Sequence record: NZ_CP086424.1
Reading direction: 5' to 3' (one strand)
DNA length: 64,000 bases
From: a plasmid
Part shown: positions 3,974 through 52,835 of the stretch, piece after piece
Position numbering within the stretch: the stretch's first letter is position 1
Layout of the letters: each line of letters starts with the position of its first letter
Made by a program: the position numbers and the translations under genes
The notes under the pieces: generated by a model
Databases searched by the model: none
What the model was told of the DNA's origin: nothing
The model's input: only the letters and a program-made list of their open reading frames with translations

Positions 3974-4582
3974 ATGAAAACGATAAAGCGGTTCATCGTA
4001 TGGGTGAATTACGGTCTTGAGGGTTGGAGCATTTTCGGATCGAGCGATGACTGGGATGAAGCGGTATCCATCCGTTCGGAAGCGATAGACGAATGCAATA
4101 TTGACGAGGAAGACATCATCTTGGCAGAAAACAAAAACGAGCTGGTGGTAAAACCTGCGGCCAAGCAAATGACGGAGTGGCACCGGGAACTGGAAGCCGT
4201 CCTTATGACCTTGGATGACTGCCAGATGGAATGTGACGGTATGACATGGGCAGTAAGCCACCTACTCAATGAAGCGGGTGTACCTCATGACTGCATGTAT
4301 GGCTTTGTGCGAAACGAACAGACCAAGGACATCGTGACACCGCATTTCTGGGTTGTCCTGGATGATGGGTGGCTGGTGGATCTGAGGCTACGCATGTGGC
4401 TGGGCGATCACGACAACATTCCTCACGGGGTATTCCATCCCGATAACGAGCCAGGACTTTTCTACAAGGGAGACCCGGTTCAAAACCATAAAGGGATGAG
4501 ACTGGGCAAAGCCGTCCTGGACATCATGACCGACGGAAAACTTTCACATGTGAAAGTTCCTGAACGACAAGACGGAGAGTAA
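3974..4582 (+). CDS. Hypothetical protein
   Basis: 202-aa ORF. The palindrome at 4539..4558 lies in its 3' end. Confidence 0.55.
   Translation: MKTIKRFIVWVNYGLEGWSIFGSSDDWDEAVSIRSEAIDECNIDEEDIILAENKNELVVKPAAKQMTEWHRELEAVLMTLDDCQMECDGMTWAVSHLLNEAGVPHDCMYGFVRNEQTKDIVTPHFWVVLDDGWLVDLRLRMWLGDHDNIPHGVFHPDNEPGLFYKGDPVQNHKGMRLGKAVLDIMTDGKLSHVKVPERQDGE
4539..4558. repeat. Family A palindrome AACTTTCACATGTGAAAGTT (copy 1)
   Basis: Perfect 20-bp palindrome. Confidence 0.8.
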
Positions 4583-4586
4583 TAGC

Positions 4587-5108
4587 GTGGAATTTGATTA
4601 CGACAAGTCAGTATCAAACGCACATCTTGAGGCCGCAGGCTGGGGTATGGATGCCTTTAACCACTCCAACCCATTTGAGAGTCATGTCATCTATGTGCGT
4701 GACTACCGCAACGATCACATCCGCCTGTTCACCATCAAGCAGGCTGACTTCGACACGATAAAGCTGCCGCTTCACCTTACCTCCGACATGCTGGCTTCGG
4801 TGATCGCTGAGTTCGTATCGAAGGCAGCAAAAGGGAAGTTGAATACGAAGGAGTCCGACACGCTGGCTCCTGCCTTGGTTGGCTATGCCAAATCAACAGA
4901 AACCTACCGGAGCTGGCGGAGAGTTTCTGGAGCAACAGAGCGATTGCATATGGTCATCAATATCTATGCGGGTTCTGAATTGCTGAGACCTTTCATCGCT
5001 CGGGCTCCTGAGACCGTCCTGACGACCCAAGAGCTACTGGTCTTCTCATCACAGGTTAAGAGCATGGATGTATCCAATCATCCAGAGTGGTTTAGGGGCC
5101 GGAGGTAG
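4587..5108 (+). CDS. Hypothetical protein
   Basis: 173-aa ORF tightly packed with its neighbours. A GTG start is possible. Confidence 0.5.
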   Translation: MEFDYDKSVSNAHLEAAGWGMDAFNHSNPFESHVIYVRDYRNDHIRLFTIKQADFDTIKLPLHLTSDMLASVIAEFVSKAAKGKLNTKESDTLAPALVGYAKSTETYRSWRRVSGATERLHMVINIYAGSELLRPFIARAPETVLTTQELLVFSSQVKSMDVSNHPEWFRGRR

Positions 5109-5110
5109 TC

Positions 5111-5632
5111 ATGAAGCCAGTTCTCTGGATATTCGTCCTGATCATCGCCCCTTTCGTCATTGCGAAAGTGGACCAATGGCGCAAACGCGGCATTGGAGAC
5201 ACCTGGGCGTGGTGGAAATCAGAGAACATGCCTTATGAGCTGCGCTCGGCCACTCTGTTTTTGTCCGAACAGGACATATCAACCACACAGCCGGTGCCCA
5301 TGCACGGCAGGGTTGATCAGGTGTACCAAACCAAGAATGGGGTTCTCATTCCCTTGGACACCAAGCTGCGCCAGGTAAACCACATCTATGAGTCGGACAT
5401 TATCCAGCTCTCGGTTTACCGGGTAATTCTGTCACACAAGTACAAGGCACCCGTTGCCAAGTACGGCTATGTCCGAACCGTTGTTGAGACAGCGGACGGG
5501 GATAGAGTCCGTTACATCAAGACAAACCTTCTCAGCGAAAAAGAAGTGGTCAAGCTGTGGCACCGCTATCAATCCATCCGTTCTGGTCAGGTAAAAACCT
5601 CCTGTTCCTGTGGCGGAAAGTTTCACATGTGA
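5111..5632 (+). CDS. PD-(D/E)xK nuclease-fold protein (RecB/Cas4-like motifs) with N-terminal TM segment
   Basis: Motifs HGRVD, LDTK and QLSVY, in the order D...(D/E)xK...QxxxY. C-terminal CSCGG. Confidence 0.45.
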   Translation: MKPVLWIFVLIIAPFVIAKVDQWRKRGIGDTWAWWKSENMPYELRSATLFLSEQDISTTQPVPMHGRVDQVYQTKNGVLIPLDTKLRQVNHIYESDIIQLSVYRVILSHKYKAPVAKYGYVRTVVETADGDRVRYIKTNLLSEKEVVKLWHRYQSIRSGQVKTSCSCGGKFHM

Positions 5633-5638
5633 AAGTTC
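5621..5638. repeat. Family A palindrome (copy 2, one mismatch)
   Basis: GTTTCACATGTGAAAGTT overlapping the stop codon of the 5111..5632 gene. Confidence 0.7.
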
Positions 5639-5728
5639 TGGATTGAATCAGGGTTGCCCGAATTGGGCAGCTAGGCGGGGTTGCATTTTTGAAAAGTCCT
5701 GTACGCTGGTTGGTATAGGAGGTGAATA

Positions 5729-6202
5729 GTGGCCCAGCTTAAACATAACCGCTTCGTCATGTTGGGGTCCTTGGTAGCGACGGTCGTAGCTGCCGCCAAT
5801 GGCTTGAGTTTTCTCACCCTTATGGCTGGTGGAATGACCCTTCTCCAGTTCATGGCTTGGAAGCAACAAGATGCTGTCCGGAGCCGGTTTAAAGCTGCGA
5901 AGGATGCGTTTGAAGCGTTGAACGTCATTGCGTTCGACAAGCACTGGGTAGGTTCAACCGCGACGGTCGCCAAAGTGTCGAACATGATCACTCCGCCCGA
6001 ACGACTGGATAAGCCCTGGGCGGTGCAAGTTCTGGCCGTGACCAAAGGTGGGACGTGGTTCGCGGTGGATCTGCAAGTGACCGGCACTGACAAGGTTCAG
6101 ATGCTTAGCCTCCACCAGCTTAGTGAAAAGGCGGCAAAGACCATGCTGGCCTTCGACCTCGAAGTGTATGAGAAATTTTTCGGAAAACCTGATGTTGCAT
6201 GA
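5729..6202 (+). CDS. Hypothetical membrane protein
   Basis: 157-aa ORF with hydrophobic N-terminal segments. Confidence 0.5.
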   Translation: MAQLKHNRFVMLGSLVATVVAAANGLSFLTLMAGGMTLLQFMAWKQQDAVRSRFKAAKDAFEALNVIAFDKHWVGSTATVAKVSNMITPPERLDKPWAVQVLAVTKGGTWFAVDLQVTGTDKVQMLSLHQLSEKAAKTMLAFDLEVYEKFFGKPDVA

Positions 6203-6212
6203 GGACAATGTG

Positions 6213-6506
6213 ATGGAAAAAGTCAAAAGCGTAGATGCCGTGGAGTTCACGGCAGCAGATAAGAAGGCGATGACCCATGCGGCATACGCCCAGTGTTTCT
6301 TCATTCTGGCCCAAGTGATGGCATTCCCTTCCCTGGGGGTGGCTGGCGCTATGGTTGCTGCTCTGTGCGGCATGATGCCGTGGTTGACCAAGTTCGCCAA
6401 AGAGGCTCCATCGAAAGCCTTTGGCATGGTGATGGCTTCACTCTGCCTTGCTCCTGTGTACGGGAAACTCTGTGAGCTGGTGGTCCACGCGATTCAGGGA
6501 GCTTGA
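6213..6506 (+). CDS. Small hydrophobic protein
   Basis: In-frame ATG at 6213, after a GAGGA-like ribosome-binding site. 97 aa, two TM segments. Confidence 0.4.
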   Translation: MEKVKSVDAVEFTAADKKAMTHAAYAQCFFILAQVMAFPSLGVAGAMVAALCGMMPWLTKFAKEAPSKAFGMVMASLCLAPVYGKLCELVVHAIQGA

Positions 6507-6510
6507 GCTT

Positions 6511-7365
6511 ATGGGGGTAGTACGAGTTCCCTACCTCTTGGCTGAGCTGAAAGAACGCGGATGTGCTGATGAATCTGCTCTGGCGCAGGTTATGCAGCCT
6601 GGATGCCGAATTGGAGAGGAAGACCTGCGGAAGTTGGCCGCAAATTTAGGGCTTGAAGTGTCCGAGCTGGCACCAGCGCCAGAGAACGCGGCCAACACCC
6701 GGTTCAAAGCAAAGCTGAGAGGAGGTTTGGCCTCCTTTCTTTTTGAGTACGACGGCTGTTTCCGACATGCAGAAGGCTCCAGCCATGCAGAAATGTTGGG
6801 TATCGAGCAAGAAGACGACATAGGTCTTCCGAGTCGAGCTGCTGACGCCATGCTCCTGGAGAAGACGCTTTACCAGGTAATCGCTCGGGCTAAGTACATG
6901 CTCGGCAAAATCGACAGCAAGTTTGTCAGGTCAGAACAAGCAATCGAGTTCCGTGAGCAACTTGCTCCTGGGATCTTCAAACCAGGTTACAGAGGTTTCC
7001 GATTCAAGGAGGCTGCCGCTGGTGATTTGCCTACTGTCATGATTGACGGTCGGAAGTTCAACTGCGTTGCCAGCATAGCCAGAGCACATGGACTTGATCC
7101 GGTAACGGTGCGTAGGCGCATTGCGGACACCGGGAAGGCCGCAGACAAACTCTCCAATGATGAGTGGAAGCTCATCCTCGCCAAGAAAAAAGGTAAAGGG
7201 AAACCCTTCACCTATCTGGACAGGACCTACAGCAACATTGCTCAGTTCTGTCGTGAGCATCAGCTCAACACCAACCTTGTTTACCAGAAAGTCAAAGACC
7301 GGGCTGATAGCGCTGATGAAGAGTTCTGGGGACTGATAATCGAAACATGCAAAAGGAAAAACTAA
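6511..7365 (+). CDS. Hypothetical protein
   Basis: 284 aa, counting from the internal ATG that is preceded by GGAG. Confidence 0.5.
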   Translation: MGVVRVPYLLAELKERGCADESALAQVMQPGCRIGEEDLRKLAANLGLEVSELAPAPENAANTRFKAKLRGGLASFLFEYDGCFRHAEGSSHAEMLGIEQEDDIGLPSRAADAMLLEKTLYQVIARAKYMLGKIDSKFVRSEQAIEFREQLAPGIFKPGYRGFRFKEAAAGDLPTVMIDGRKFNCVASIARAHGLDPVTVRRRIADTGKAADKLSNDEWKLILAKKKGKGKPFTYLDRTYSNIAQFCREHQLNTNLVYQKVKDRADSADEEFWGLIIETCKRKN

Positions 7366-8324
7366 TGGCAGAAAACAAAGAGATCCCCTGGGAGAAAGAA
7401 CTCATTGAGAAGTACATGTTCACCCTGCATAAAGAGCAGGTGAAAGACCGGCGCTGGCGGACCATGTTGCGTGTGCTTCGCGCATCTGGTTTCGTGCTTC
7501 TCATGATCGGCTTCATCATTTTGGCATCTAATCCGGGTGGGATGCCGTGGCAAAGCGCCAAGGCAGGAGCCCCTCACACCGCGTATATCAACATCCGTGG
7601 TGAAATTGCTGCTGGCACTCTGGCCGATGCTGATCACCTTATCCCGTCCATCCAAGCTGCATTCGACAACCCGAACTCACAAGCTATCGTGCTTCGCATA
7701 AACAGCCCTGGCGGTAGCCCGGTTCAAGCAGGACGGATTTATGACGAAGTGAAGGCGCAGCGAGCCCTTCATCCGGAGAAAAAGGTCTACGCCATCATTG
7801 ATGACATCGGTGCCTCTGGCGGTTACTACATCGCCTCTGCTGCGGATGAAATCTATGCTGACCGCGCCAGCCTTGTCGGTTCTATCGGCGTCATCAGCTC
7901 GGGGTTTGGATTCACCGGCTTGATGGACAAGCTCGGCATCGAGCGCCGGGCTATCACTTCCGGAGAGCACAAAGCGCTTCTCGACCCATTCTCCCCTCTT
8001 ACCTCTGACATGAAGAAATTCTGGGAGGGCGTTCTATCGAAAACCCACCAGCAGTTCATCGAACGAGTGAAGGCTGGGCGGGGTGATCGACTGAAAGACG
8101 ACCCAGAGGTGTTTTCTGGATTGCTCTGGAACGGGGAGCAGGCCAAAGACATTGGGCTGATTGATGGCCTGGGTAGTTTGAACTCCGTGGCGCGAGACGT
8201 CATCCACCAGAGCAACTTGGTGGACTACACACCAACCGAAGACATCATCCGGCGACTGACCCAACGAGCGAAGCTCGAAGCCAGTTCCTTCGTGCAAGAA
8301 CTCAGCGCTGTGAAAGTTTACTGA
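7365..8324 (+). CDS. sppA: S49-family signal peptide peptidase (SppA/SohB-like)
   Basis: Serine-protease core motifs SPGGS and GASGGYY, plus an N-terminal TM segment. TAATG overlap with the upstream gene. Confidence 0.7.
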   Translation: MAENKEIPWEKELIEKYMFTLHKEQVKDRRWRTMLRVLRASGFVLLMIGFIILASNPGGMPWQSAKAGAPHTAYINIRGEIAAGTLADADHLIPSIQAAFDNPNSQAIVLRINSPGGSPVQAGRIYDEVKAQRALHPEKKVYAIIDDIGASGGYYIASAADEIYADRASLVGSIGVISSGFGFTGLMDKLGIERRAITSGEHKALLDPFSPLTSDMKKFWEGVLSKTHQQFIERVKAGRGDRLKDDPEVFSGLLWNGEQAKDIGLIDGLGSLNSVARDVIHQSNLVDYTPTEDIIRRLTQRAKLEASSFVQELSAVKVY

Positions 8325-8339
8325 TAGGAGCAGTTTGAT

Positions 8340-9200
8340 ATGACAGAACAAAGTACCAAATCACTACGTCTCGGGGTTGTTGCCGCCATTCTTTTGGGGC
8401 TCGTAGGAACCGGGTTCGGGATCTACCAGTTCGTGAAAGAGAAGGATCTGGCGCAAGAGATCGCCAACGTGAAGTCTACGGTCAACCAGGTGAAGGATGC
8501 CGAAGGCGTCACCTTCAAAAGCAAGGCAGAGTTTGAAGCTGCTGTGGCCGAAAGCATCAACAAGTTTGTCGCGCAGAAACAACAAGCCGACATCGATCAG
8601 AAGTATGCCCAGTTCGAGGCAGCACCTGAGAAGGTCGAAGAAGGCAAACACATCTACGGGGACCTTGGTGCTCGGTTCACGCTGGTGGAGTTCTCCGATA
8701 TGGAGTGCCCATTCTGCAAGCGATTCCACGACACACCCAAACAAATTGTGGATGCCAGCAAAGGCAATGTGAATTGGCAGTGGAAGCACATGCCTCTCGA
8801 TTTCCATAACCCGGCAGCTCACAAGGAAGCTCTGGCCGCTGAATGTATTGCTGAGCAGAAGGGCAACCGTGGCTTCTGGGTCTTCGTTAACGACATTTTC
8901 CACCATACCCAGGGGAATGGTGGCGGTGTTGCTGACCTGGCCTCTGTTGTCACTGGTGTTGGTGCTGATCTGGATGCGTTCCGGGAGTGCCTCGGCTCAG
9001 GAAAGTACGAAGACAAGGTTGAAGCTGACATCCAGAAAGCCAAGAGCTATGGCGTCAACGGGACACCAGCCACTTTTGTAGTGGACAACCATACCGGCAA
9101 GAGCCAGCTTCTCGGCGGCGCTCAACCGGCGCAAGCCATCATGGCCGTGATGCGAAAAATGATGATTGAGTCGCAACAAGACGACTCCGCGAACCAATAA
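8340..9200 (+). CDS. dsbA: DsbA-like thiol:disulfide oxidoreductase (thioredoxin fold, CPFC active site)
   Basis: CPFC motif, N-terminal TM anchor, 286 aa. Confidence 0.7.
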   Translation: MTEQSTKSLRLGVVAAILLGLVGTGFGIYQFVKEKDLAQEIANVKSTVNQVKDAEGVTFKSKAEFEAAVAESINKFVAQKQQADIDQKYAQFEAAPEKVEEGKHIYGDLGARFTLVEFSDMECPFCKRFHDTPKQIVDASKGNVNWQWKHMPLDFHNPAAHKEALAAECIAEQKGNRGFWVFVNDIFHHTQGNGGGVADLASVVTGVGADLDAFRECLGSGKYEDKVEADIQKAKSYGVNGTPATFVVDNHTGKSQLLGGAQPAQAIMAVMRKMMIESQQDDSANQ

Positions 9201-9202
9201 AA

Positions 9203-9220
9203 ACTTTCACATGTGAAAGT
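9203..9220. repeat. Family A palindrome ACTTTCACATGTGAAAGT (copy 3)
   Basis: Perfect 18-bp palindrome immediately after the dsbA stop codon. Confidence 0.8.
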
Positions 9221-9233
9221 GGAGTGAGAACTG

Positions 9234-9662
9234 ATGATCAAGATTACAACTAAATTGGGATGCCTTCTGGCGGGGCTGCTTGTCCTGTCGGCTTGCTCAA
9301 GCGTCCCTCAGCCAAACAACGAATACGCGAAGGCCTTGGATGATACCAAACAGGTATGCGCTGCCTGTGCCCTGGTTGGTAATGACCTGCTGGTTGCCCT
9401 CAACAAGTCATGCGACACCCCAATGACCCCCGAGACTCTTACAAGCGTCATGAACAGTAACCCGATGTTTGCCGCCATGATGGCAATTAACTCCATAGGT
9501 GGAACCGACTTCTATCAGGTTTACCGTGATGCGGCCATAGACACCCTGCGGTGCAATGAAATGGACAGTTGGCCTGATCGGACCAAGGTGCGTTTCCAGC
9601 AGCCCGACATGCAAAAGGCGCTGGCCTTGAGGGTTTCTGCCAGACAGCAGAAGGCAAATTAA
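9234..9662 (+). CDS. Lipoprotein, hypothetical
   Basis: Signal peptide with an LSAC lipobox. 142 aa. Confidence 0.5.
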   Translation: MIKITTKLGCLLAGLLVLSACSSVPQPNNEYAKALDDTKQVCAACALVGNDLLVALNKSCDTPMTPETLTSVMNSNPMFAAMMAINSIGGTDFYQVYRDAAIDTLRCNEMDSWPDRTKVRFQQPDMQKALALRVSARQQKAN

Positions 9663-9679
9663 CTTTCACATGTGAAAGT
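9662..9679. repeat. Family A palindrome (copy 4)
   Basis: Perfect 18-bp palindrome overlapping the stop codon of the 9234..9662 gene. Confidence 0.8.
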
Positions 9680-9718
9680 CAGGCTCTCCGGGGCCTGATT
9701 TCACTATGAGGTGAATCT

Positions 9719-10078
9719 ATGGAGTTACAAGAAGCAAAAGAGGCTCTCGATAGCCTTCATCCACACAAGGCCTCAGCGCCTTTGAGGCTTGTCATCCACC
9801 AGCCAGGTGGGATTGGTGGAACCCCTACAGTGGGGGTGAAAGCTATTCACGCAGGCTTTGACTGGGACAGCAACACCATCCTGATCTATCCGGAAGAGCA
9901 GCTCACCCGGTTGACGCCGGATGAGGTCGCCGCCATCACGAAGTCAGTATCGAAAGGACAGTCCTGGCATTCATATCAGCAGTTCAAGAAGTATCGGGAG
10001 CAGTTGGCCGAAGCCACGGAAGAAATTAATAGGCTCAGGGCTGAGCTGGGCAGGTATCAGAATAACGGGAGGGGGTAA
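9719..10078 (+). CDS. Hypothetical protein
   Basis: 119-aa ORF ending in a coiled-coil-like segment. Confidence 0.45.
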
Positions 10079-12113: not shown

Positions 12114-12138
12114 GCCTCACCCAAACAGGAGGATCAAC

Positions 12139-13201: not shown

Positions 13202-13212
13202 ATCTTAATCAT

Positions 13213-14428: not shown

Positions 14429-14977
14429 ATGAACAACCTACCCCTACTGCTCGATGCAAGAGAAGCCATTGACTACTACCACCAGCATCCAGGCATGACT
14501 GATGCAGAAAAGGCCTATGTGGTCGCGTTCCTAAGCGGAGAGGGGCGTTCAAACAGTCAGATCAGAGAGGATCTGGGTATTGAGAAGGTCTATACGGTTA
14601 CACACCTGAAACGCGCCGGTACGCTATCGGAGGAAGAGCTAACACTCTGGCTCAGAAATCCACGCAAGATCACCCTGGGGCATGTGAGGGCCGTGGCTAA
14701 GTTACCTTTCAGCAAGAGAGAAAAGCTCCTGAGGGATCTCCTGCATACCAGGACACCGGTTCATAAATTTGAGGCGATAGCGAAGGGCAAAGAAGTGGAC
14801 AGGGATGCAGACATTAAGCGCCTGGAGACCCTGATGAGCGATGCTACGGGTAGGCCTATCAAAGTTCGCTATAACCCCGCGAAGCGCTCCGGGGAACTGA
14901 CGCTGGGATTCTTCACGCTCGATGACCTGGATGACGTGTGCAAGGCTTTGGGGTTTGATCCAAGCGAGCAGATGTAA
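14429..14977 (+). CDS. ParB/Srx-like N-terminal domain protein
   Basis: 182 aa. TLGHVRAVAKL resembles the ParB-like nuclease / sulfiredoxin GxxRxxA motif. Confidence 0.4.
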   Translation: MNNLPLLLDAREAIDYYHQHPGMTDAEKAYVVAFLSGEGRSNSQIREDLGIEKVYTVTHLKRAGTLSEEELTLWLRNPRKITLGHVRAVAKLPFSKREKLLRDLLHTRTPVHKFEAIAKGKEVDRDADIKRLETLMSDATGRPIKVRYNPAKRSGELTLGFFTLDDLDDVCKALGFDPSEQM

Positions 14978-14985: not shown

Positions 14986-15003
14986 ACTTTCACATGTGAA
15001 AGT
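14986..15003. repeat. Family A palindrome (copy 5)
   Basis: Perfect ACTTTCACATGTGAAAGT, 9 bp after the stop of the 14429..14977 gene. Confidence 0.8.
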
Positions 15004-15025: not shown

Positions 15026-15054
15026 TTTACAGTATCATAAAATGAATCTGTAAA
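15026..15054. promoter_or_regulatory. Family B inverted-repeat motif TTTACAGTATCATAAAATGAATCTGTAAA (copy 2)
   Basis: 13 bp upstream of the 15067 ORF. Confidence 0.45.
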
Positions 15055-16371: not shown

Positions 16372-16713
16372 TTAGCTAAAGCATTCGCCGGTTTTAAAGT
16401 CGTAGCTGTAAGTGCCCATCAGATTGGCTTTTCGGCTTTTCTTGCCATTGGTGTTTGCTGGCGCTTTAGGGGTCGCAAGTACGCCATAGAACAGGATACC
16501 AACAAGTGCCGCTTGCCACGCGAAAACAGCAACCAGAATCCAAAAAGCAGCAGCCAGAACCGGCAGTTTGTGCAGAAGGTTGAGCACCGACTTGGCCCAA
16601 ATCACTGCCGGGATAGCCAGCACTGCGTAACCCCAGTTGGTGGCCTCAAGCATAGCCAGGCCAAGAATAACAACAGCCATCAGCGCGATATTCAGTACAT
16701 GTTTCATGGTCAT
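16372..16713 (-). CDS. Small integral membrane protein
   Basis: 113 aa, 3 to 4 TM segments. Confidence 0.45.
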   Translation of the reverse strand: MTMKHVLNIALMAVVILGLAMLEATNWGYAVLAIPAVIWAKSVLNLLHKLPVLAAAFWILVAVFAWQAALVGILFYGVLATPKAPANTNGKKSRKANLMGTYSYDFKTGECFS

Positions 16714-17837: not shown

Positions 17838-17865
17838 TATTTACAGCATCACATAATGATACTAT
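17838..17865. promoter_or_regulatory. Family B motif TTTACAGCATCACATAATGATACTATGA (copy 3, degenerate)
   Basis: About 90 bp before the IS26 boundary. No downstream gene remains. Confidence 0.35.
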
Positions 17866-18774: not shown

Positions 18775-19017
18775 CGAAAAACCACGTTAAGAAAGCAACC
18801 TTCTGAAAAGGCGACGTTTATCAGTTTTTTTTCCGGCCATAAAGGGGGCGGAAATTATTCCCTGCACGGGTATTCGCAAGGATTTCGGTAGTGCTCTGGC
18901 TCTGCCCCCCATAACCTGGCGGACAGAGCATGATTGGGAAAGCGGTACCCTCACGGCAGAAACGATTGACGCAGGCTATATTTCTATTATTCTGGAAATA
19001 TAGATAAAGGAGGTATT

Positions 19018-19198
19018 ATGGATTTAAACACTGCTGCAAACGCACTTCGAGAACTGGGCCACCCGACACGTCTCAGCATATACCGGGAGCTGGTCAGGGC
19101 GGGTCATGAAGGCCTGCCGGTTGGCGAACTGCAGAAGCACCTTGAGATTCCTGCCTCCACGCTCAGCCATCATCTTTCAGCGCTGATATCCGCTGGAC
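19018..19198 (+). pseudogene. ArsR/SmtB-like regulator N-terminal fragment, truncated by IS26
   Basis: HTH region LRELGHPTRLSIYREL. The reading frame runs into the IS26 terminal repeat. Confidence 0.4.
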
Positions 19199-31465: not shown

Positions 31466-31560
31466 CTGAGCATGGTATTTTTCATGGTATTACCAATTAG
31501 CAGGAAAATAAGCCATTGAATATAAAAGATAAAAATGTCTTGTTTACAATAGAGTGGGAT
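31466..31560. mobile_element. ISCR2 terminal-region remnant (two blocks matching 21553..21660) adjacent to sul2
   Basis: CATGGTATTTTTCATGG and CTTGTTTACAATnGAGTGGGA are shared with the end of the intact ISCR2. Confidence 0.55.
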
Positions 31561-31562
31561 AA

Positions 31563-31874
31563 ATGGACGCTAAAGAACTGAACCACATGATAGCTGAGGC
31601 CTACAGCCGGGATTTGCAAAAGCCTGAGCTGGTATCGTTCAAAGAGGTGAGTCGCTGGGGGCGTAAGTACGGTTTCCCCGTCGTATGCACTCTGGCCGAT
31701 GAAAGTGAAGAAAAGCAGATCCACTGGGCTGCCAGTTTGCTCATTCAAGTAGCCGGTACTTGGCCGCGAGAAGATATGCCGGAATTGCTCACACCGGAAC
31801 GGGGCTCCGCGCTGTTCAACGATGCGATGCAGTTATTGGCGAATGGGCTTGGAGCAGCAAATCAATTGCGCTGA
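31563..31874 (+). CDS. Hypothetical protein (backbone gene upstream of parA)
   Basis: 103-aa ORF that starts immediately at the island boundary. A terminator follows it. Confidence 0.45.
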   Translation: MDAKELNHMIAEAYSRDLQKPELVSFKEVSRWGRKYGFPVVCTLADESEEKQIHWAASLLIQVAGTWPREDMPELLTPERGSALFNDAMQLLANGLGAANQLR

Positions 31875-31895
31875 CAGCACAAACCTTGTCAATAA

Positions 31896-31925
31896 GCGGC
31901 CTTCATGGCCGTTTTTTTGTTTAAA
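31896..31925 (+). terminator. Rho-independent terminator
   Basis: AGCGGCCTTCATGGCCG hairpin followed by TTTTTTTG. Confidence 0.6.
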
Positions 31926-31943
31926 GTTTGTTTTAACAGAACC

Positions 31944-31971
31944 ATAATTAGATATTGCAGTATCATTTTAT
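31944..31971. promoter_or_regulatory. Family B motif TTGCAGTATCATTTTATGATCGCTACAA (copy 4) in the parA promoter region
   Basis: Degenerate version of the 10-3-10 inverted repeat. It directly abuts the family A palindrome. Confidence 0.4.
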
Positions 31972-31983
31972 GATCGCTACAAT

Positions 31984-31999
31984 CTTTCACATGTGAAAG
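31984..31999. promoter_or_regulatory. Family A palindrome CTTTCACATGTGAAAG (copy 6), 42 bp upstream of parA. Candidate parS/operator.
   Basis: 16-bp perfect core. Position is typical for ParB autoregulation. Confidence 0.6.
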
Positions 32000-32041
32000 T
32001 TTGGGGGTGGTCTTGATCACCTGCGAGAAACCAAAATAGAG

Positions 32042-32833
32042 GTGGGTATGGCAAAAGTAATCAGCTTCGCCAACCAGAAAGGCGGAGTGGGTAAGAGTAC
32101 CCTCTGTATCCAGCAGGCCTTTTATCTGGCGTTACAGAAGAAAAAGAAAGTGCTGGTCTTGGATATGGATGGTCAGGGGAACACGTCCTCTCGACTGGCC
32201 CCCAGACGAGAGCTTGAGGATGGTGACTACGAGCCCATCCTCACAGGAACCAAAACCGCAGAGCTGTTCGCTTACGAGCTGGACGGCATTGAGGTCATGC
32301 ACTGCCCTTGCGGTGCAGACCTCATTCATACGCCGAAAAACGACCCGGATCTGTTTGAGATGGAGGCTGTGCCTCTTGACCAGGCCATGAATCCGGCTCG
32401 CCATTTGGCTGAGCTGTTTGAGAACTACGACTACGTGCTGATTGATTGTCCGCCTAGCCTCGGCAGAAAGCTGGTGGCAGCGTTGGTGATGTCTACCCAT
32501 GTGGCATGTCCAGTAAAGCTCTCTGGCTTCGCTGTGGACGGCGTAGAAGGTCTCCTGAACACGATTATTGGTGTGCGCGAGGCGTACAACCAAGATTTGG
32601 AGATCCTGGGCATCGTGATCAACGACATGGACCGCTCTGTCAATCACGACAAAGCCCTCAAGTCGCTGGAGAACACAGTTCCGGATCTGTTGTTTGAGAA
32701 CAAAATTATGCACCGGCCTCCGCTCGATACGGCGACGACTGATGGCATCCCTGTCTGGGAGCTTCGCTATGGACATGTCGCGGCCAAAGAAGTTGAGGCG
32801 GTGTTGGAAGAACTATTAGAGAAGGTGGGCTAA
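32042..32833 (+). CDS. parA: ParA partition ATPase (Walker-type, MinD/ParA family)
   Basis: KGGVGKST deviant Walker A. 263 aa. Confidence 0.85.
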   Translation: MGMAKVISFANQKGGVGKSTLCIQQAFYLALQKKKKVLVLDMDGQGNTSSRLAPRRELEDGDYEPILTGTKTAELFAYELDGIEVMHCPCGADLIHTPKNDPDLFEMEAVPLDQAMNPARHLAELFENYDYVLIDCPPSLGRKLVAALVMSTHVACPVKLSGFAVDGVEGLLNTIIGVREAYNQDLEILGIVINDMDRSVNHDKALKSLENTVPDLLFENKIMHRPPLDTATTDGIPVWELRYGHVAAKEVEAVLEELLEKVG

Positions 32834-32836
32834 GCG

Positions 32837-34018
32837 ATGGCATTGAACAATTTAAAAGGCCTGTCCGAACTTGCTAAAGCCGCCAAAGGCAAGAAAGGCA
32901 AAGAGGTTCTTACCGTACCTGTTGACGACGTTGTATCCAAGGTCCAGGTTCGTAAGCGCTTCCGTAACATTGAAGAGCTGGCGGCAACCTTGCTGACCGA
33001 AGGGCAGCAGTCTCCGATCATCGTGTTCCCGAAGAACGAAGAAGGCAAGTTCGTCATCCAAAAAGGGGAGCGGCGTTGGAGAGCGTGTAAACACGCTGGT
33101 ATCGAGACCATTGACTTGGTGGTGAATGATAAGGTCCAGAACAACTTGGACGAGACTGCTGGTGAGCTGATCGAAAACATCCAGCGGGATGACTTGACTC
33201 CGGTAGAGATTGCCGAGGCGTTAAACCTGTTTATTGAAGAAGGTTGGAAGCAAAAGGATATTGCTGATCGGCTCGGTAAGAATATCACTTTCGTATCTAC
33301 GCATCTGTCGTTGCTCAAGCTACCTGACTGTGTGCGTGAGTTATACGATAATGAAGTATGTTCTGATACAGAGACCTTGAATAACCTTCGTCTCTTGTTC
33401 GATCTGAATGAAGAAAGATGTCGCGCCGTCTGCGCGGTGGCTATGTCTGACGGGATTACTCGTAAACAAAGCCGTGAGCTGCTGAATGATGCCAAACGTA
33501 TCAAAGACGAAATGGAAAAAGGCCCACTGACTGGCTCCCACCAGAATGATGAGCTTGGCGCTGGCAACACCGACGAGCAATCCCTCAACTCGGGTGGGGA
33601 TGGTACGTCGGAACAAACCGGGAATGACGACCTGAACCTTGCCCAGGAGGAACTGGAAGGGGGTAAAAATTCCAATGGTCAGGACGATGATGACGAAGAC
33701 CCTTTGCGTGATGAAGAGGGTGAGCACAAAGATCCTGTCAAGCAGCCAGATAACAGCGGCAAGGACAAAGATGAAGAAGGCGGTGATGCTCTTCCTCCTC
33801 TGCCGAAGGACAAGGAATGGAAGAACGTCCGGGCTGACAGTTTGATTTTTGCTGTCAACGTTAACCTGGATGGCGAGACCAAACGTGGAGTCATCATGAC
33901 CGACCGTGTTGCTCTGGTTCCGTCTACTGTCTGGGTTAAAACGCTCGATGGCGAAGGCAAGGAAAAGCATGTTCATGTGCCTGTGTCAGACATTGAACTC
34001 CTGAGTGTCGAAGGCTAA
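32837..34018 (+). CDS. parB: ParB partition protein (ParB/Spo0J family) with acidic low-complexity C-terminal extension
   Basis: GERRWRA box II motif, HTH region. 393 aa. Confidence 0.8.
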   Translation: MALNNLKGLSELAKAAKGKKGKEVLTVPVDDVVSKVQVRKRFRNIEELAATLLTEGQQSPIIVFPKNEEGKFVIQKGERRWRACKHAGIETIDLVVNDKVQNNLDETAGELIENIQRDDLTPVEIAEALNLFIEEGWKQKDIADRLGKNITFVSTHLSLLKLPDCVRELYDNEVCSDTETLNNLRLLFDLNEERCRAVCAVAMSDGITRKQSRELLNDAKRIKDEMEKGPLTGSHQNDELGAGNTDEQSLNSGGDGTSEQTGNDDLNLAQEELEGGKNSNGQDDDDEDPLRDEEGEHKDPVKQPDNSGKDKDEEGGDALPPLPKDKEWKNVRADSLIFAVNVNLDGETKRGVIMTDRVALVPSTVWVKTLDGEGKEKHVHVPVSDIELLSVEG

Positions 34019-34060
34019 TAAAGGAGGCCCAGCCAGAGAGGTTGGGCCTGTCAAGAACAG

Positions 34061-34339
34061 GTGAATATGAAGATCTCACAGGACATGAAAAGAAAATTTG
34101 CTTTGGTGAATGCCCTGTCTAAAACGGAGAAGCCAAGTCTCCAAGACCTTCACAAGGCAACAAATATTCCTGAATCAACGATCAAGAGACAGTTGTCTGC
34201 CCTGCGTGATGAGTTCGGAATGAATATCTTGTTCGTCAGGGAGTCTACCGGCGAACGAGGTGCCACCGGCTACTACATGCTGACAGACTGGGGGATCTTA
34301 GACAGGTCTTCGTTCTTGAACCGGTACGGAAAACTGTAA
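34061..34339 (+). CDS. 053: Small HTH protein downstream of parAB (053-like stability gene)
   Basis: 92 aa with an HTH motif (NIPESTIKRQLSALRDEFG). Follows parB directly. Confidence 0.5.
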   Translation: MNMKISQDMKRKFALVNALSKTEKPSLQDLHKATNIPESTIKRQLSALRDEFGMNILFVRESTGERGATGYYMLTDWGILDRSSFLNRYGKL

Positions 34340-34391
34340 GGTGCCATAGAGCAGCGCATTGAATGCAAAACCCGCCAATCGGCGGGTTTTT

Positions 34392-35060
34392 TTATGCTGC
34401 CACGGTAGCGGCGGTTGCTGGAGGTTTTTCGGCGTAGTAGGCGATGTTCTTGGTTCGTCTGCTAAGGGTGTCTATGCCGACGATACTCAGCGTTTTGGGA
34501 GTGGTATTGCGGGACTCGAAATAATGGAATAGCTGGATCATGCAGCACTTCACCATCAACGGATCGATGTCTTCCAGGTAGATTGAGGCTTCTCTCAATG
34601 CTTCGGGACCGTGGTTCTCGATCAGGTTTTCCATCCAGTGAATGGCGTTGATGCCAGAACCACAGCAGGGCTCATAAAAGTCTGCCGAAGACTGTGAGCC
34701 AACAATGAGTGACATCAAGCGGCCAATCTCTGGAGGAGTGGGGAAGTAATTGGTGCCCTTCTTGTGGAAGCCAGACATGCTTAGGACGTAACCCAAAACA
34801 TCGCTGGTGGGGTCGCGCTTAATGGCGGCAGACAGGACGTGAGAGAGCTCGAAGGCGACCGGCTGAAGTTCTTCCGGGATCTCCTCCTTGGCTGGGTATA
34901 GGCCAGTCTGCAAGTATGCCCACTGGTCAATAAAGGCCTCAACAAACCGAGATGTGCCCATTCTGTATCGGGACTGCTCGATGAGAGATAAAGCCTTGGA
35001 TGTAAGTTGCTGTGTTTCTGGTGACATAAGCGCTCCAGTTTGTTCTGACGAAACATTCAA
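34392..35060 (-). CDS. HsdM-like N6-adenine DNA methyltransferase fragment-like protein (motifs X and I only)
   Basis: NYFPTPPEI (motif X, YFTP-like) followed by DFYEPCCGSG (motif I). No NPPY/F motif IV is seen. 222 aa. Confidence 0.45.
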   Translation of the reverse strand: MNVSSEQTGALMSPETQQLTSKALSLIEQSRYRMGTSRFVEAFIDQWAYLQTGLYPAKEEIPEELQPVAFELSHVLSAAIKRDPTSDVLGYVLSMSGFHKKGTNYFPTPPEIGRLMSLIVGSQSSADFYEPCCGSGINAIHWMENLIENHGPEALREASIYLEDIDPLMVKCCMIQLFHYFESRNTTPKTLSIVGIDTLSRRTKNIAYYAEKPPATAATVAA

Positions 35061-35342
35061 GAGGTAGAAACGAAGAACCCCGCCGAAGCGAGGTTCTTTG
35101 CTTTCCTGCCTGATCGCCTTAATGCCGAAGCAAAGACGTCTTGATAAAGTCGGGGCAACCGGACATTTCCCGGTCGATGAAGTCCTGACGTTTCGCCAGC
35201 GGCCATTTCATGAACGCCGCGAGCGGGATGCGCTTATTCGTGTTAGTATTGCCTTGCAGCATAACAAAGCTCCTTAATTGCTTGATTGTGTTGTAAGGGC
35301 TGCAACGAAGGTCGAAGAGCGATGCGGCCCTTATTTATGATT

Positions 35343-35365
35343 ATTACAGCATCATAAAATAATAT
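35343..35365. promoter_or_regulatory. Family B half-motif TTACAGCATCATAAAATAATATC (copy 5a)
   Basis: Left arm; the matching right arm is at 35551..35580. Confidence 0.35.
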
Positions 35366-35397
35366 CAAGAGACAATAAAACGATACCAAGAAACAAA

Positions 35398-35415
35398 ACT
35401 TTCACATGTGAAAGT
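35398..35415. repeat. Family A palindrome (copy 7) in the divergent intergenic region
   Basis: Perfect ACTTTCACATGTGAAAGT. Confidence 0.8.
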
Positions 35416-35550
35416 CTCCCCGCTGTCCACCTCGCACACTCCAAACGCCCAAACGCCCAAATAACTTGTCTATCTGCCCAAAATGGGCGCGTAAGCGTCC
35501 GATAGAAAGTAATTGTTAGTGAGATATTGACTACACGGAATATGGCTATA

Positions 35551-35580
35551 TCATAGAATCATAAAATGATGCTGTAAAAG
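35551..35580. promoter_or_regulatory. Family B motif ATCATAGAATCATAAAATGATGCTGTAAAA (copy 5b) abutting the start of the 35580 gene
   Basis: The right arm ATGATGCTGTA is the reverse complement of TACAGCATCAT at 35345. Confidence 0.4.
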
Positions 35581-35966
35581 TGATATGTATGCCAAAGCAA
35601 GCAAATCATCTCCGTTTGAAGAAACCTTGCGCCAACTGTCCATTCCGGAAGGAGGGCGCTATCGAGCTGGCCCCTGGGCGATTAGAAGGCATCATCAACG
35701 ACATCGTTGAAAACGACATGACGACGTTTCATTGCCACAAGACCGTGCACTCAAAGTCAGGTGGTGAATGGGATGAAGAGGGTAACTATGCACCTTCGGG
35801 ACAAGAGTCGATGTGTGCCGGTGCTGCGGCTTACTTGATGAAAATAGGCAGGCCGACAGTGGCTATGCGAATTGCCTTTGCGTTTGGTGATGCAAAGGTG
35901 TCCGACTGGGACGAAGCTCAAGAGCTGGTTGTCGAGCCTTTGGTACAAGGGGACCGAAATGAGTAA
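35580..35966 (+). CDS. Cys/His-rich hypothetical protein (CANCPF...HCHKTVH)
   Basis: 128-aa ORF, first gene of a run of overlapping genes. Confidence 0.45.
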   Translation: MICMPKQANHLRLKKPCANCPFRKEGAIELAPGRLEGIINDIVENDMTTFHCHKTVHSKSGGEWDEEGNYAPSGQESMCAGAAAYLMKIGRPTVAMRIAFAFGDAKVSDWDEAQELVVEPLVQGDRNE

Positions 35967-36240
35967 GCGATATGCGGTAGTGCCGCATCCGAAACTGAAA
36001 CGAGAGTACAAAGGTCGGCTGGTCAGAACTACTCGGGTACTAAAAAACGGCTGGGGGTTGATCCCTCTAGGGGCTGTGGCAACGGTCACGCATCAGTCTC
36101 CCAAGGGATCAGAACTGACCTTTGAACCATGCGACTGCTGCGGCCTGAAAGCCATTATCAGTCATGTAAGCATGGACTCCATTGAATTTATCGAACCGAT
36201 TACTGAGGAAGAAGATGGACGAGAACAAGCTCAACATTGA
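35956..36240 (+). CDS. Hypothetical protein
   Basis: ATGAGTAA overlap with the upstream gene. 94 aa. Confidence 0.4.
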   Translation, partial: EMSKRYAVVPHPKLKREYKGRLVRTTRVLKNGWGLIPLGAVATVTHQSPKGSELTFEPCDCCGLKAIISHVSMDSIEFIEPITEEEDGREQAQH

Positions 36241-45103: not shown

Positions 45104-45270
45104 CGTGTCGTTCCTCATAAAAAATTGTCGATGAGCCCATTCTAAAAGGGGGGGGATGGAAAGCTGGTTTCTCAAACTGCCCAAATTGGACAGATAGGCG
45201 TGTGTGCGATCTAAAGGTGTTTTGAGAGCATGTAGCGACGAGAAATACGATAGGAATATGGTCAACCTAC

Positions 45271-50105: not shown

Positions 50106-50115
50106 GAGCAGAGCT

Positions 50116-50700
50116 ATGTGTGACAAGAAGTATAGAAATTACGAGGTAGCCATCATGGTCGATGTGAACCCTTTCGACAGGGTTATGAATGAATTGAAAA
50201 GTCGTGGCCGCAAGAACGCTCACATCCTGAGCATCCTCCAATTCGACTGGCCTGCATCGGAGGCCATCATCGAGAAGCTGAGCTGCTACATCACAGACGG
50301 GATTAAGGCTAATCAGGAGCCTGTGATTTACCCGATCATTGAAGAAGCTCTGCATCGCTACAGCCAGCTCGTGTTTCATGAGCAGAGAGAGAAATATGAA
50401 GACCCGGCCAGAATTGGGGCATTTCTGGAAACCCTGATCACCGAAACCTGCCGGGCGTTGGAAGTGCAAATTGTCGATAGTGGCGGTGATTCATGGTCTG
50501 TCGATTCAGGAGAGTCGTTCTCACTGTGGCTTTCTTCCCATCCAGGAGAACTATCCATTAACCCGCAGCCCCATGAGGATGAGACCTCTTTGCGTGGCTT
50601 GCTGTATGAGCTCATCACCTGTGAGAGCGTGAAAACTGTTTTAAGGAGAACCGACTATGAAGAAGCCGTGGTTGCTGGTCGCATGGCTGCTGGTTATTGA
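50116..50700 (+). CDS. Hypothetical protein
   Basis: 194-aa ORF. Confidence 0.4.
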   Translation: MCDKKYRNYEVAIMVDVNPFDRVMNELKSRGRKNAHILSILQFDWPASEAIIEKLSCYITDGIKANQEPVIYPIIEEALHRYSQLVFHEQREKYEDPARIGAFLETLITETCRALEVQIVDSGGDSWSVDSGESFSLWLSSHPGELSINPQPHEDETSLRGLLYELITCESVKTVLRRTDYEEAVVAGRMAAGY

Positions 50701-51286
50701 GTTGCTGGCAATATTGCTGCTGATCCCTGGCGACTGGACAGACAGAGCCATCAAAAGGGAATCCGAGCTGGTGGAACAGAGTCTTGGTGTCGAAGCAAGA
50801 GACTGGATACAGAACAAAGCATCTACCTGGTTCAGGTCGAGCGTTATTGATTCAGGATTCTATGAGGGGATGTACCAAACGCTGATCCCATCAGAAGAGG
50901 AGCGCCAGAAGTCCAAGGGGATGCAGGACATGGGCAAGGGCTGGTTTGTGTGGGTCAAAGGCCGCATGGAAGCCTTTGTCAACGTCATTTACCAGTTCTA
51001 CACAAGGTTGGCACTGTTAGCCGCGTGGGCTCCCTATATGCTGATCCTGTTCGTACCTGCGGTATATGACGGGATGATGACATGGCGAATTAAGCGGACC
51101 AACTTCGATTATGCGAGTCCGGTTCTCCATCGTTACAGCGTTCGCGGAACGATGTACCTGATGGCCGGATTGTTCATCGCGTTCTTCATCCCCATAGCGC
51201 TCGATCCGGTTGTCATCCCGATGACAATGATGACGTGCTGTGTCCTGGTTGGCCTGACGTTCGGCAACCTCCAGAAACGGGTATAG
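50657..51286 (+). CDS. Integral membrane protein (possible TraJ-like transfer protein)
   Basis: 209 aa with multiple TM segments. Sits at the traD-traL position, as in SXT/IncC gene order. Confidence 0.35.
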   Translation: MKKPWLLVAWLLVIELLAILLLIPGDWTDRAIKRESELVEQSLGVEARDWIQNKASTWFRSSVIDSGFYEGMYQTLIPSEEERQKSKGMQDMGKGWFVWVKGRMEAFVNVIYQFYTRLALLAAWAPYMLILFVPAVYDGMMTWRIKRTNFDYASPVLHRYSVRGTMYLMAGLFIAFFIPIALDPVVIPMTMMTCCVLVGLTFGNLQKRV

Positions 51287-51295
51287 GGAGGGAGG

Positions 51296-51742
51296 ATGAG
51301 CTACTCCGTTATAAATCAAGATGGGGTGCATCTGTGCGACATCCCATTGAACGTCTACCAGGTGATACGTCGCCAATCCTTGTCTGCGTTGTGGCTTTAC
51401 TGGGCGCAGAGCTTGAATTTGGTGAAGGTGCTCATTGCTTGCGTCGGAAAGATGATCTTTGTGATGCCGGTAATGTGGTTCTGGGTGCTGGTGGTGTGCC
51501 GCTTGGTTGAACCAGAACGTATCTCAGACGTGTCAGGACTTATCTCTCCGGACGTGATCGGGTGGGCCGCTGGTGCGGCCATCACCCTCATTATCTTTTC
51601 CGTATTTACACGCCCAGCGTTGTACGGATACCACAACTTTTTCAAGCAGCATATTTGCTCAAGAGTAAAGCAAGTAACGCCGGAACTCAGAACAGTCACT
51701 GGGCCACTGTTCTTTTACCGAAACGAAATTGGAACGATATAG
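51296..51742 (+). CDS. Integral membrane protein
   Basis: 148 aa with several TM segments. Confidence 0.4.
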   Translation: MSYSVINQDGVHLCDIPLNVYQVIRRQSLSALWLYWAQSLNLVKVLIACVGKMIFVMPVMWFWVLVVCRLVEPERISDVSGLISPDVIGWAAGAAITLIIFSVFTRPALYGYHNFFKQHICSRVKQVTPELRTVTGPLFFYRNEIGTI

Positions 51743-51751
51743 AGAGGAACC

Positions 51752-52129
51752 ATGAAAGTAACTAATAGACTCCAACTGCTGGCACTGGGGCTGTGTATAG
51801 CCGGTACTGCCATCGCGGCTCCTGATGTGCTCAATGACGACGCAAAGCTCAAGAACCTTGAGAAGGTGTGTCCCGACTGTCAGATGGTGGCAAAAGATGT
51901 ACTCAATCTGCGGGTTGAAAACTGCCAGCTCAAAGACACTTCCAGTGCAATGATGATTGGCACCATGCAAAATGACCCTATGTTTTCGTTTATGCTGGCT
52001 GTACACACAGCGGCAGGCTCGGAGGCATACAAAACGGTAGTTGGTGCCGCTGGCAACCATGTTGACTGTGAAAACCCGTTGAACTGGATCAAGCTGACCC
52101 AGCAAGCGATTAAAGGTGGCAAAGTCTAA
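51752..52129 (+). CDS. Periplasmic Cys-containing small protein
   Basis: Signal peptide MKVTNRLQLLALGLCIAGTAIA. 4 Cys residues. Confidence 0.45.
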   Translation: MKVTNRLQLLALGLCIAGTAIAAPDVLNDDAKLKNLEKVCPDCQMVAKDVLNLRVENCQLKDTSSAMMIGTMQNDPMFSFMLAVHTAAGSEAYKTVVGAAGNHVDCENPLNWIKLTQQAIKGGKV

Positions 52130-52791
52130 TGCGTAAGAGAGATTTCTTTTTTGGAGAGGTGTATGAGGGGAGTGGAGGAGCCACTCTACGACTGAGTGAT
52201 ATGGAACCATTGGCAAGAAAAGTGTCGGCAGAGTTCTTCACTGCACAACTGAACCGTATACTGAAAGAGCATGACGGTCAGTTGACGCTCAGCGATGGAA
52301 CGTCGTACCCCAGCTTTTGGAGCTTCATCGACAAGGTTGATCCAGAGCAGGTTGGTTTCGTGGAGATCTACGCTCGGCAGGATGTTAACGATAATGTTGA
52401 AGCGACACTGGCGTGTGACATCGTTTTGGTAAATGGTGTGATCACCGTTAAACCTCACTGGTGTGCTTACAAAGACATCAGGGCTGACGAAGTGATTTCC
52501 ACCTTACTGGTGCCTTTGCATTTGAAGGCTCTCCAGGGTAAGGCTTACATTCGCTGGGATGATGGTGAAACCGAACCTCTGTTACAAAACGACGACTATC
52601 AGGCTGAACTTGAAAATGTGTTTAGTGTTTCCAAGTACCCATCAGCCATGAGCTGGGGCGATACAGCAGACCAGAAGGTTAAGCAGTACAAGATGGACCT
52701 TGAGTGCGCCACAGATGTTGGTCGTCGAGGTGTCTCATCAGAGCAAGCATGGGATGCTTATCGAGAACTCCGTTACAATAGAACAGTGTGA
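52129..52791 (+). CDS. Hypothetical protein
   Basis: 220 aa. ATG overlaps the upstream stop. Confidence 0.45.
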   Translation: MRKRDFFFGEVYEGSGGATLRLSDMEPLARKVSAEFFTAQLNRILKEHDGQLTLSDGTSYPSFWSFIDKVDPEQVGFVEIYARQDVNDNVEATLACDIVLVNGVITVKPHWCAYKDIRADEVISTLLVPLHLKALQGKAYIRWDDGETEPLLQNDDYQAELENVFSVSKYPSAMSWGDTADQKVKQYKMDLECATDVGRRGVSSEQAWDAYRELRYNRTV

Positions 52792-52815
52792 AACAAGCGG
52801 CCATCGGCCGCTTTG

Positions 52816-52835
52816 AACTTTCACATGTGAAAGTT
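52816..52835. repeat. Family A palindrome AACTTTCACATGTGAAAGTT (copy 8) followed by a T-run
   Basis: Perfect 20-bp palindrome, 25 bp after the stop of the 52129..52791 gene. Confidence 0.8.

Follow-up and report, generated by a model that had tools for sequence, protein, structure and literature searches.

The stretch of plasmid sequence analysed here, 64,000 nucleotides (nt) of record NZ_CP086424.1 (hereafter the window), carries one short palindrome at eight scattered places, and the question is which protein recognises these sites and what they do for the plasmid. The eight palindromes are almost certainly the parS sites of the parAB-053 partition system of IncC plasmids, of which 12-14 are present on a whole plasmid. 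This identity is already known and experimentally characterised, since the palindrome was described as the parS of IncC plasmids by Murányi, Szabó, Acsai, and Kiss (2024, Nucleic Acids Res 52:2498; PMC10954446). No new biology comes from the present finding as such, and the residual novelty is limited to a proposed regulatory role of ParB and to a second palindrome.

Copies of the palindrome in the IncC backbone

Exact matches to the 14-bp core TTTCACATGTGAAA could be found at eight positions of the window (4542, 5621, 9205, 9664, 14988, 31985, 35400, and 52819), whereas dinucleotide-preserving shuffles of the window gave 0.28 on average and never more than 3. The 18-mer ACTTTCACATGTGAAAGT likewise gave eight matches with two or fewer mismatches, against 0.00 expected. 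Six copies were exact (4540, 9203, 9662, 14986, 35398, and 52817), while those at 5619 (AG..) and 31983 (TC..) had one outer-base mismatch each. The copies, with their coding sequence (CDS) context, and the two resistance islands of the window, with their insertion sequences (IS), are listed below.

Copy 1, 4540-4557: exact 18-mer; in the 3' part of CDS 3974-4582, ending 25 nt before the CDS end; encodes K-L-S-H-V-K-V; the R55_6 site of PMC10954446
Copy 2, 5619-5636: AGTTTCACATGTGAAAGT; overlaps the stop codon of CDS 5111-5632; AcaCD-like box 18 nt downstream; R55_08 and the R55_9/vcrx012 promoter are listed in PMC10954446
Copy 3, 9203-9220: exact; 2 nt past the stop of a dsbA-like gene; between the dsbA-like gene (8340-9200) and CDS 9234-9662
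Copy 4, 9662-9679: exact; overlaps the last stop base of CDS 9234-9662; followed by a separate GC-rich hairpin
Copy 5, 14986-15003: exact; 8 nt past the ParB_C-domain gene 14429-14977; promoter-like element just downstream
Copy 6, 31983-32000: TCTTTCACATGTGAAAGT; operator of the parA promoter (PparA); its 22-bp inverted repeat, 31981-32002, overlaps the -10 box
Copy 7, 35398-35415: exact; in the divergent intergenic region 35263-35588; AcaCD-like box 59 nt downstream
Copy 8, 52817-52834: exact; 25 nt past CDS 52129-52791, after a GC-rich hairpin; AcaCD-like box 47 nt downstream
Resistance island 1, ~17.9-31.3 kb: IS26/ISVsa3, floR-tet(A)-strAB-sul2
Resistance island 2, 58970-64000: ISEcp1-blaCMY-2

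All eight copies were located in the IncC backbone and none in either resistance island. Non-coding sequence makes up only 11% of the backbone. Five copies were fully intergenic, two overlapped a stop codon, and one lay within the last 45 nt of CDS 3974-4582; six were within 25 nt of the stop codon of a plus-strand gene. The number eight applies to the window and not to the whole plasmid. A total of 13 copies, including five in the part not covered by the window, could be detected in the complete plasmid pSNE1-1924 (NZ_CP025231.1), which is near-identical to the window and collinear with it from repA.

The original prediction, made from the window sequence alone, had described eight copies of a perfect palindrome of 18-20 bp and had suggested a motif search of the full plasmid. 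Its count agreed with the eight core matches and its coordinates were right to 1-2 nt, but the exact 18-mer is present in only six of the eight copies. Copy 2, which it had placed at 5621-5638, belongs at 5619-5636, and the parA-proximal 18-mer ends 47 nt, not 42 bp, before the parA ATG at 32048. The gene context that it gave (six copies near stop codons, one before parA, and one in a divergent intergenic region) was consistent with the list of coding sequences, and the absence from the resistance islands was confirmed.

ParB and the parS sites

A full-text literature search with the 14-bp core returned PMC10954446 as its single match. According to that study, plasmid R55 carries 14 parS copies, consisting of the 14-bp core with AAAC/GTTT flanks, and the number per plasmid is 12-14 in most IncC and 10-14 in IncA plasmids (PMC10954446). 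The R55 copies are situated near or in R55_6, R55_08, R55_13, R55_14, R55_24, R55_29, parA, R55_55, R55_74, and five more loci (PMC10954446). The eight copies of the window could be mapped one-to-one onto R55_6, R55_08, R55_13, R55_14, R55_24, parA, R55_55, and R55_74. The core, the AAAC/GTTT-type flanks, the gene neighbourhoods, and the position of the parA-proximal copy on the -10 box are the same as in the published parS sites of IncC and IncA plasmids (PMC10954446), and with 13 copies in the complete relative against the 12-14 reported, nothing essential differs.

The functional evidence is published as well. Purified IncC ParB shifted three parS sites specifically in electrophoretic mobility shift assays (EMSA) with competition, and a 4-bp insertion at the parS centre abolished both ParB binding and incompatibility (PMC10954446). 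Extra parS copies destabilised the plasmid, a dose-dependent incompatibility of the centromere type, and a mini-replicon carrying the parS of DR2 from the genomic island SGI1 was stabilised in trans only when ParA and ParB were both present, while 053 was not needed (PMC10954446). Reporter assays revealed 8-11-fold repression of PparA by IncC plasmids, which the authors ascribed to ParB (PMC10954446). The palindromes had been proposed, from the sequence, to be binding sites of the ParB encoded at 32837-34018; the EMSA on the same motif and the domains of ParB support this. Of the experiments suggested alongside, the EMSA with ParB had already yielded a specific shift, and the test of stabilisation by parAB in trans or of incompatibility had already produced both phenotypes (PMC10954446).

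Some points weigh against applying this identification equally to every copy. Binding in vitro covers three sites, of which one is parA-proximal (copy 6 here) and another is the 22-bp consensus, matched in full by none of the eight window copies. Because the 14-bp core by itself was not bound by ParB (PMC10954446), the copies with weaker flanks (5619 and 9203) could be weaker sites. Literature searches for studies of IncC ParB after 2024 by chromatin immunoprecipitation sequencing or on its CTPase gave nothing beyond PMC10954446, and no evidence contradicting the parS identity was met in this analysis.

The par operon and its promoter are arranged in the window as follows.

PparA, 31956-31983, plus strand: putative promoter read from the sequence; -35 TTGCAG at 31956-31961, 16-nt spacer, -10 TACAAT at 31978-31983
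parA, 32048-32833, plus strand: ATPase of the Walker/ParA type, 261 amino acids (aa); domain matches AAA_31, CbiA, ParA, and MipZ
parB, 32837-34018, plus strand: 393 aa; ParB_N, HTH_ParB, and KorB domains; GERRWRA motif
orf053, 34067-34339, plus strand: 90-aa winged-helix protein; third gene of the par operon; dispensable for trans-stabilisation (PMC10954446)

The KorB domain (PF08535) of ParB was recovered at residues 134-222 with an E value of 1.7e-38 (Pfam). The nearest solved structure was KorB of RK2 (8qa8, E 9e-21, residues 44-199), followed by Noc and Spo0J (PDB search), and the GERRWRA arginine-patch motif is of the CTP-binding type. KorB of the IncP-1 plasmid RK2/RP4 binds 12 OB operators of the sequence TTTAGCSGCTAAA. 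Both systems combine a ParB in which a KorB DNA-binding domain accompanies a ParB_N domain bearing a GERRxRA-type motif, and a short TTT...AAA palindrome scattered about a dozen times, of which one copy autoregulates the par operon and some lie beside promoters. They differ in the operator, which in the window is TTTCACATGTGAAA, and ParB is only distantly related to KorB, as given by the E value of 9e-21. Homologs of KorA, TrbA, and IncC of RK2 were not identified, and global repression or long-range silencing of the KorB type is only proposed for the ParB of IncC plasmids.

Chromosomal parS, TGTTNCACGTGAAACA, is bound by Spo0J/ParB. It shares with the window palindrome the half-site TTTCAC/GTGAAA and a ParB-family binder with a motif of the CTP-binding type. 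The original prediction had pointed to this half-site likeness, which holds, but the spacing is 2 bp wider owing to two extra central base pairs (TTTCAC-AT-GTGAAA), and the copies are dispersed on a plasmid instead of being clustered near an origin. No canonical chromosomal parS was present in the window at three or fewer mismatches and no OB operator at two or fewer mismatches, which leaves the palindrome as the sole candidate for the centromere.

The reading of PparA agrees with PMC10954446, where the promoter lies 64 bp upstream of the parA ATG with its -10 box overlapped by an inverted repeat; a promoter consensus scan did not flag it. The 22-bp inverted repeat at 31981-32002, 45-47 nt upstream of parA, overlaps the -10 box at 31978-31983, so that ParB bound there as a dimer would block access to this box and to the start site. 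The dimeric ParB, which is of the KorB type, recognises an inverted repeat of ~22 bp, AAAC-TTTCACATGTGAAA-GTTT. By analogy with the ParB family, and in keeping with the large EMSA shifts, it may load at each parS, close as a CTP-dependent clamp, and spread or slide, building up partition complexes that would be positioned on the nucleoid by the ParA ATPase. The copy at 31983-32000, which covers the start region of PparA together with its -10 box, would at the same time bring about the repression by the par proteins.

Conservation of the sites was assessed in three IncA-type relatives (loci L125, L126, and L127), namely Salmonella pYULZMPS10, Shewanella baltica SF1039_p1 (L126), and Xenorhabdus nematophila plasmid II, the backbones of which were about 86-88% identical to the window at the nt level. 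Every syntenic parS core was intact (14/14 bp) in all three, while the flanks contained substitutions and indels, so that the positions of the copies proved to be conserved in relatives, as the original prediction had expected of functional sites. Neutral sites at 86.6% identity would, by our own arithmetic, keep all 98 core positions unchanged with a probability of ~1e-6. For copy 1, which encodes KLSHVKV in CDS 3974-4582, every synonymous position was unchanged in five diverged lineages with 45-54% protein identity (elements of Vibrio, Marinobacterium, Rheinheimera, and Paraglaciecola); selection therefore acts on the DNA itself. The integrative and conjugative elements of the SXT/R391 family use the unrelated srpMRC system (PMC10954446).

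Two differences in copy number could be observed among these relatives. An extra parS is present upstream of a 310-aa open reading frame (ORF) in IncA-type relatives (L126, 22171; L125, 8214) and represents the R55_29-type site. This copy is missing from the window, where the homologous backbone segment was not found; its place corresponds to that of the sul2-floR-tet(A)-strAB island. In the Shewanella baltica plasmid (L126, 9127-9146), the 459-bp segment between copies 3 and 4 (orf9234; window 9203-9679) is absent, and a single hybrid site combines the left flank of copy 3 with the right flank of copy 4, which suggests a deletion or insertion through recombination between the two parS copies.

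Other explanations of the palindrome were weighed against these data. It is very improbable that the sites are operators of another dimeric protein, such as 053, the ParB_C-domain protein encoded at 14429-14977, or a host factor. Copy 5 does lie just 8 nt past the gene 14429-14977, an Alcanivorax element (36% aa identity) shows the same succession of gene, parS, and promoter, and 053 is a winged-helix protein; however, the specific shift of the sites is obtained with purified ParB, and stabilisation does not require 053 (PMC10954446). Searches of Pfam, NCBIfam, and PDB with the 14429-14977 protein revealed only the ParB_C dimerisation domain and no helix-turn-helix. With no such motif detected, and with the adjacent site kept by IncA-type relatives that have no gene of this type, the protein is not supported as the binder.

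A role as intrinsic terminators or RNA hairpins at gene ends, which the six copies near plus-strand stop codons and the short T runs after two copies (31983, GTTTGGGG; 52817, GTTTTTCG) would suit, is scarcely credible. The 18-mer folds into a weak hairpin (-4.6 kcal/mol, 7 bp, 2 G-C pairs), the U tract is missing at most copies, and the likelier terminator at 9662 and 52817 is a separate GC-rich hairpin. One copy is within an ORF and one within a promoter, and relatives conserve the exact sequence and not the mere pairing potential, with no compensatory changes seen. The terminator scan of 31500-36000 did not flag the two copies in that range. The terminator reading was rejected on the weak AT-rich fold and the mostly absent U tracts, and the earlier argument that an AT-rich stem speaks against a terminator was thereby upheld. 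Just as hard to credit is a mobile or recombinogenic repeat (of the REP or MITE type, or sites of a plasmid recombinase) with no partition role. The hybrid of copies 3 and 4 in the Shewanella baltica plasmid suggests that copies can recombine, but the sequence common to the copies ends at ~22 bp, and their positions are syntenic in diverged relatives, unrelated positions in IncA and IncC plasmids having been tested for and found not to be the case. The published ParB binding and partition phenotypes also account for the sites.

As parS sites, the palindromes determine the incompatibility through partition by which SGI1-type islands evict IncC plasmids. DR1 and DR2 of SGI1 carry parS mimics, 10-25 bp upstream of AcaCD boxes, which use the ParAB of the IncC plasmid for island stabilisation and plasmid displacement (PMC10954446). 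The motif is the same as in the window, but there it belongs to a parasitic island, whereas in the window it belongs to the plasmid itself. The parS sites are also a practical target for plasmid curing, a significance already realised in PMC10954446.

Possible regulation by ParB and a second palindrome

The remaining question is whether ParB also regulates through these sites. The parS copies may primarily be operators of a KorB-like network in which ParB, perhaps aided by a second repressor, silences promoters of the backbone and of transfer genes, partition being only one of the functions of the sites. This extends the parS identification and is compatible with it; we regard it as a genuine possibility, although we lean against it. 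Part of the case is that ParB has a KorB domain and KorB as its nearest relative in PDB, that copy 6 overlaps PparA, and that copy 5 abuts a promoter-like -35 element. The authors of PMC10954446 proposed the same regulatory idea, and a parS knockout in DR1 lowered the copy number of SGI1 (PMC10954446). AcaCD-like boxes were sought with the pattern TGCCCRAAWTGGGC, derived from three promoters named in PMC10954446, and three of the five in the window had a parS 18-59 nt upstream (copies 2, 7, and 8).

AcaCD-like box, 5655-5668, plus strand: TGCCCGAATTGGGC; pattern match downstream of copy 2
AcaCD-like box, 35475-35488, plus strand: pattern match downstream of copy 7
AcaCD-like box, 52882-52895, plus strand: pattern match downstream of copy 8

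Across the loci compared, 27 pairs of parS and AcaCD-like box, deduplicated by intervening sequence, were within 200 bp, compared with ~4 expected by our own estimate, although the loci are related and this is not a clean statistic. Nine diverged loci also had a parS upstream of their eexC-like genes. Such sites just upstream of AcaCD-activated and other promoters may let ParB modulate transcription in a KorB-like manner. However, the experimental support is limited to the autoregulation of PparA and to an influence on the S004-repA operon of SGI1 (PMC10954446), the copies at 4540, 9203, and 9662 have no recognisable promoter nearby, and the operator sequence of RK2 is absent from the window. 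Dispersed parS sites would also fit a pure partition or condensation role. The original prediction of a centromere that doubles as a regulatory network thus stands for the centromere, which was shown experimentally for this motif in the IncC plasmid R55 (PMC10954446), while global regulation or silencing is still a proposal.

The eexC-like entry-exclusion genes (35-99% aa identity) always had a parS upstream in the loci L004 (41076-41580, pSNE1-1924), L114, L099, L085, L073, L020, L022, L060, L029, and L101. The site was 127-133 nt before the predicted start in seven loci and nearer in three others, in which the start assignment is uncertain, and it precedes a conserved promoter, GTTGCAT-N17-GTAAAC/TATTAT. 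The eexC paralog of the window (16372-16707, minus strand) is without a parS.

A second palindrome, (CAGT)ATCAT-WWW-ATGAT(ACTG), with the 21-bp form CAGTATCATAAAATGATACTG, was matched six times in the window at one or no mismatch, against 0.26 expected.

Second palindrome, 3747-3767
Second palindrome, 15030-15050
Second palindrome, 17844-17864
Second palindrome, 31958-31974, in the spacer of PparA
Second palindrome, 35347-35363
Second palindrome, 35554-35574

Each of these backbone sites fills the spacer of a promoter-like element, TTTACA/TTGCAG-N16-17-TAnnAT. Most were 60-160 bp from a parS, and most positions were kept in the IncA-type relatives, while the other 92 kb of the plasmid contained none. 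The literature searches did not yield the sequence, a full-text search matching only an unrelated paper, and ten small ORFs in the vicinity of the sites gave no useful match for a binder when scanned against Pfam. For PparA to be repressed fully, a factor whose gene lies elsewhere than in the par operon is required, and the SGI1 protein Sci may target this factor (PMC10954446). The second palindrome is a candidate operator for this co-repressor and offers a concrete handle on it. A fuller proposal, which is more doubtful again and advanced only tentatively, would join ParB/parS and a backbone-encoded binder of the second palindrome into a two-repressor network resembling KorB/KorA, with the binder as the extra regulator targeted by Sci and with ParB also tuning AcaCD-activated transfer promoters and eexC.

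A 21-bp direct repeat, ATAAAACAATACCAAGAAACA, is present in two copies (81% match) at 35354-35396 and ends one base before parS copy 7.

Distribution beyond IncA/C and plasmid context

A scan for the exact 18-mer, with each species represented by a single genome, matched at least 120 stretches, against a rough chance expectation of ~9; the distribution described here is a sample, not a census. Among the matches listed, most were from marine Gammaproteobacteria; many contigs had multiple copies, and many had diverged backbone genes of the IncA/C type.

The sites were differently arranged in some of these elements. An IncA/C-like plasmid of Edwardsiella anguillarum (NZ_VZOX01000017.1; L110, 5064-5478), with a RepA 92% identical, contains the parS core in a tandem array of 48 bp x 8.6. 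The array stands where copy 2 does in the window, with the AcaCD-like box directly after it, and its flanks are ..AAAC and not ..AAGT. The sopC centromere of the F plasmid is a tandem array of 12 x 43 bp, and the E. anguillarum array resembles it, the copies of the window and of IncC and IncA plasmids being generally single and dispersed.

In Cupriavidus pampae (NZ_CAJZAG010000021.1; L098, 4890-5690), seven sites that read ACTTTCAC-NN-GTGAAAGT are clustered within 800 bp directly upstream of parA-parB. This cluster, like the Edwardsiella anguillarum array, speaks for the parS identity of the window palindromes. The ParB of this betaproteobacterium was only 33% identical to that of IncC and gave no KorB-domain match, so that the class of half-sites with a 2-bp spacer extends beyond IncA/C. 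The central dinucleotide of these sites was AT, GT, AC, or GC, and it seems free to vary.

Among the matches listed, chromosomal islands with MobI and DUF927 genes and with BREX or GmrSD cargo had a single exact parS in conserved intergenic regions. Such islands were found in Oceanobacter (L028), Marinobacter (L011 and L118), Idiomarina (L027 and L033), and Alcanivorax (L063 and L115). The order in L028 was mobI (minus strand), parS, and DUF927 (plus strand) with BREX genes, and that in L027 was GmrSD, parS, an IS, and DUF927, with further sequence in between. These islands look like genomic islands other than SGI1 that are mobilisable by IncC or SXT elements and carry a parS mimic. A locus of Photorhabdus caribbeanensis (NZ_RCWB01000013.1; L018, 4962-7585) runs from a dsbA-like gene through parS and a ParB with KorB domain (65% identical) to a 053 homolog (88%). 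It is without parA and adjoins an Hcp gene (type VI secretion system), and could represent either the remains of an orphan ParB-parS pair or a fragment that has integrated.

The window begins at repA, and its backbone was 100% identical to many IncC plasmids, which are major carriers of multidrug resistance and here bear blaCMY-2, floR, tet(A), strAB, and sul2. Its only differences from pSNE1-1924 were a 424-bp stretch between two IS26 copies and the ISEcp1-blaCMY-2 arrangement from 58970 on. The IS26-flanked stretch (18775-19198) is inverted in the window relative to pSNE1-1924. At 58970-64000, traA is followed directly by a single ISEcp1-blaCMY-2-blc-sugE unit in the window, while pSNE1-1924 has an inverted duplication of this unit. 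Short direct repeats are located 3' of repA (1375-1982), including a 23-bp unit, TGGGAACGTTGCACGGCAACCTA, repeated 2.7 times at 1921-1982, and are presumably the iterons of the replication origin oriV; the same family of 23-bp units is also present in the Edwardsiella anguillarum plasmid (L110) at 1485-2093.

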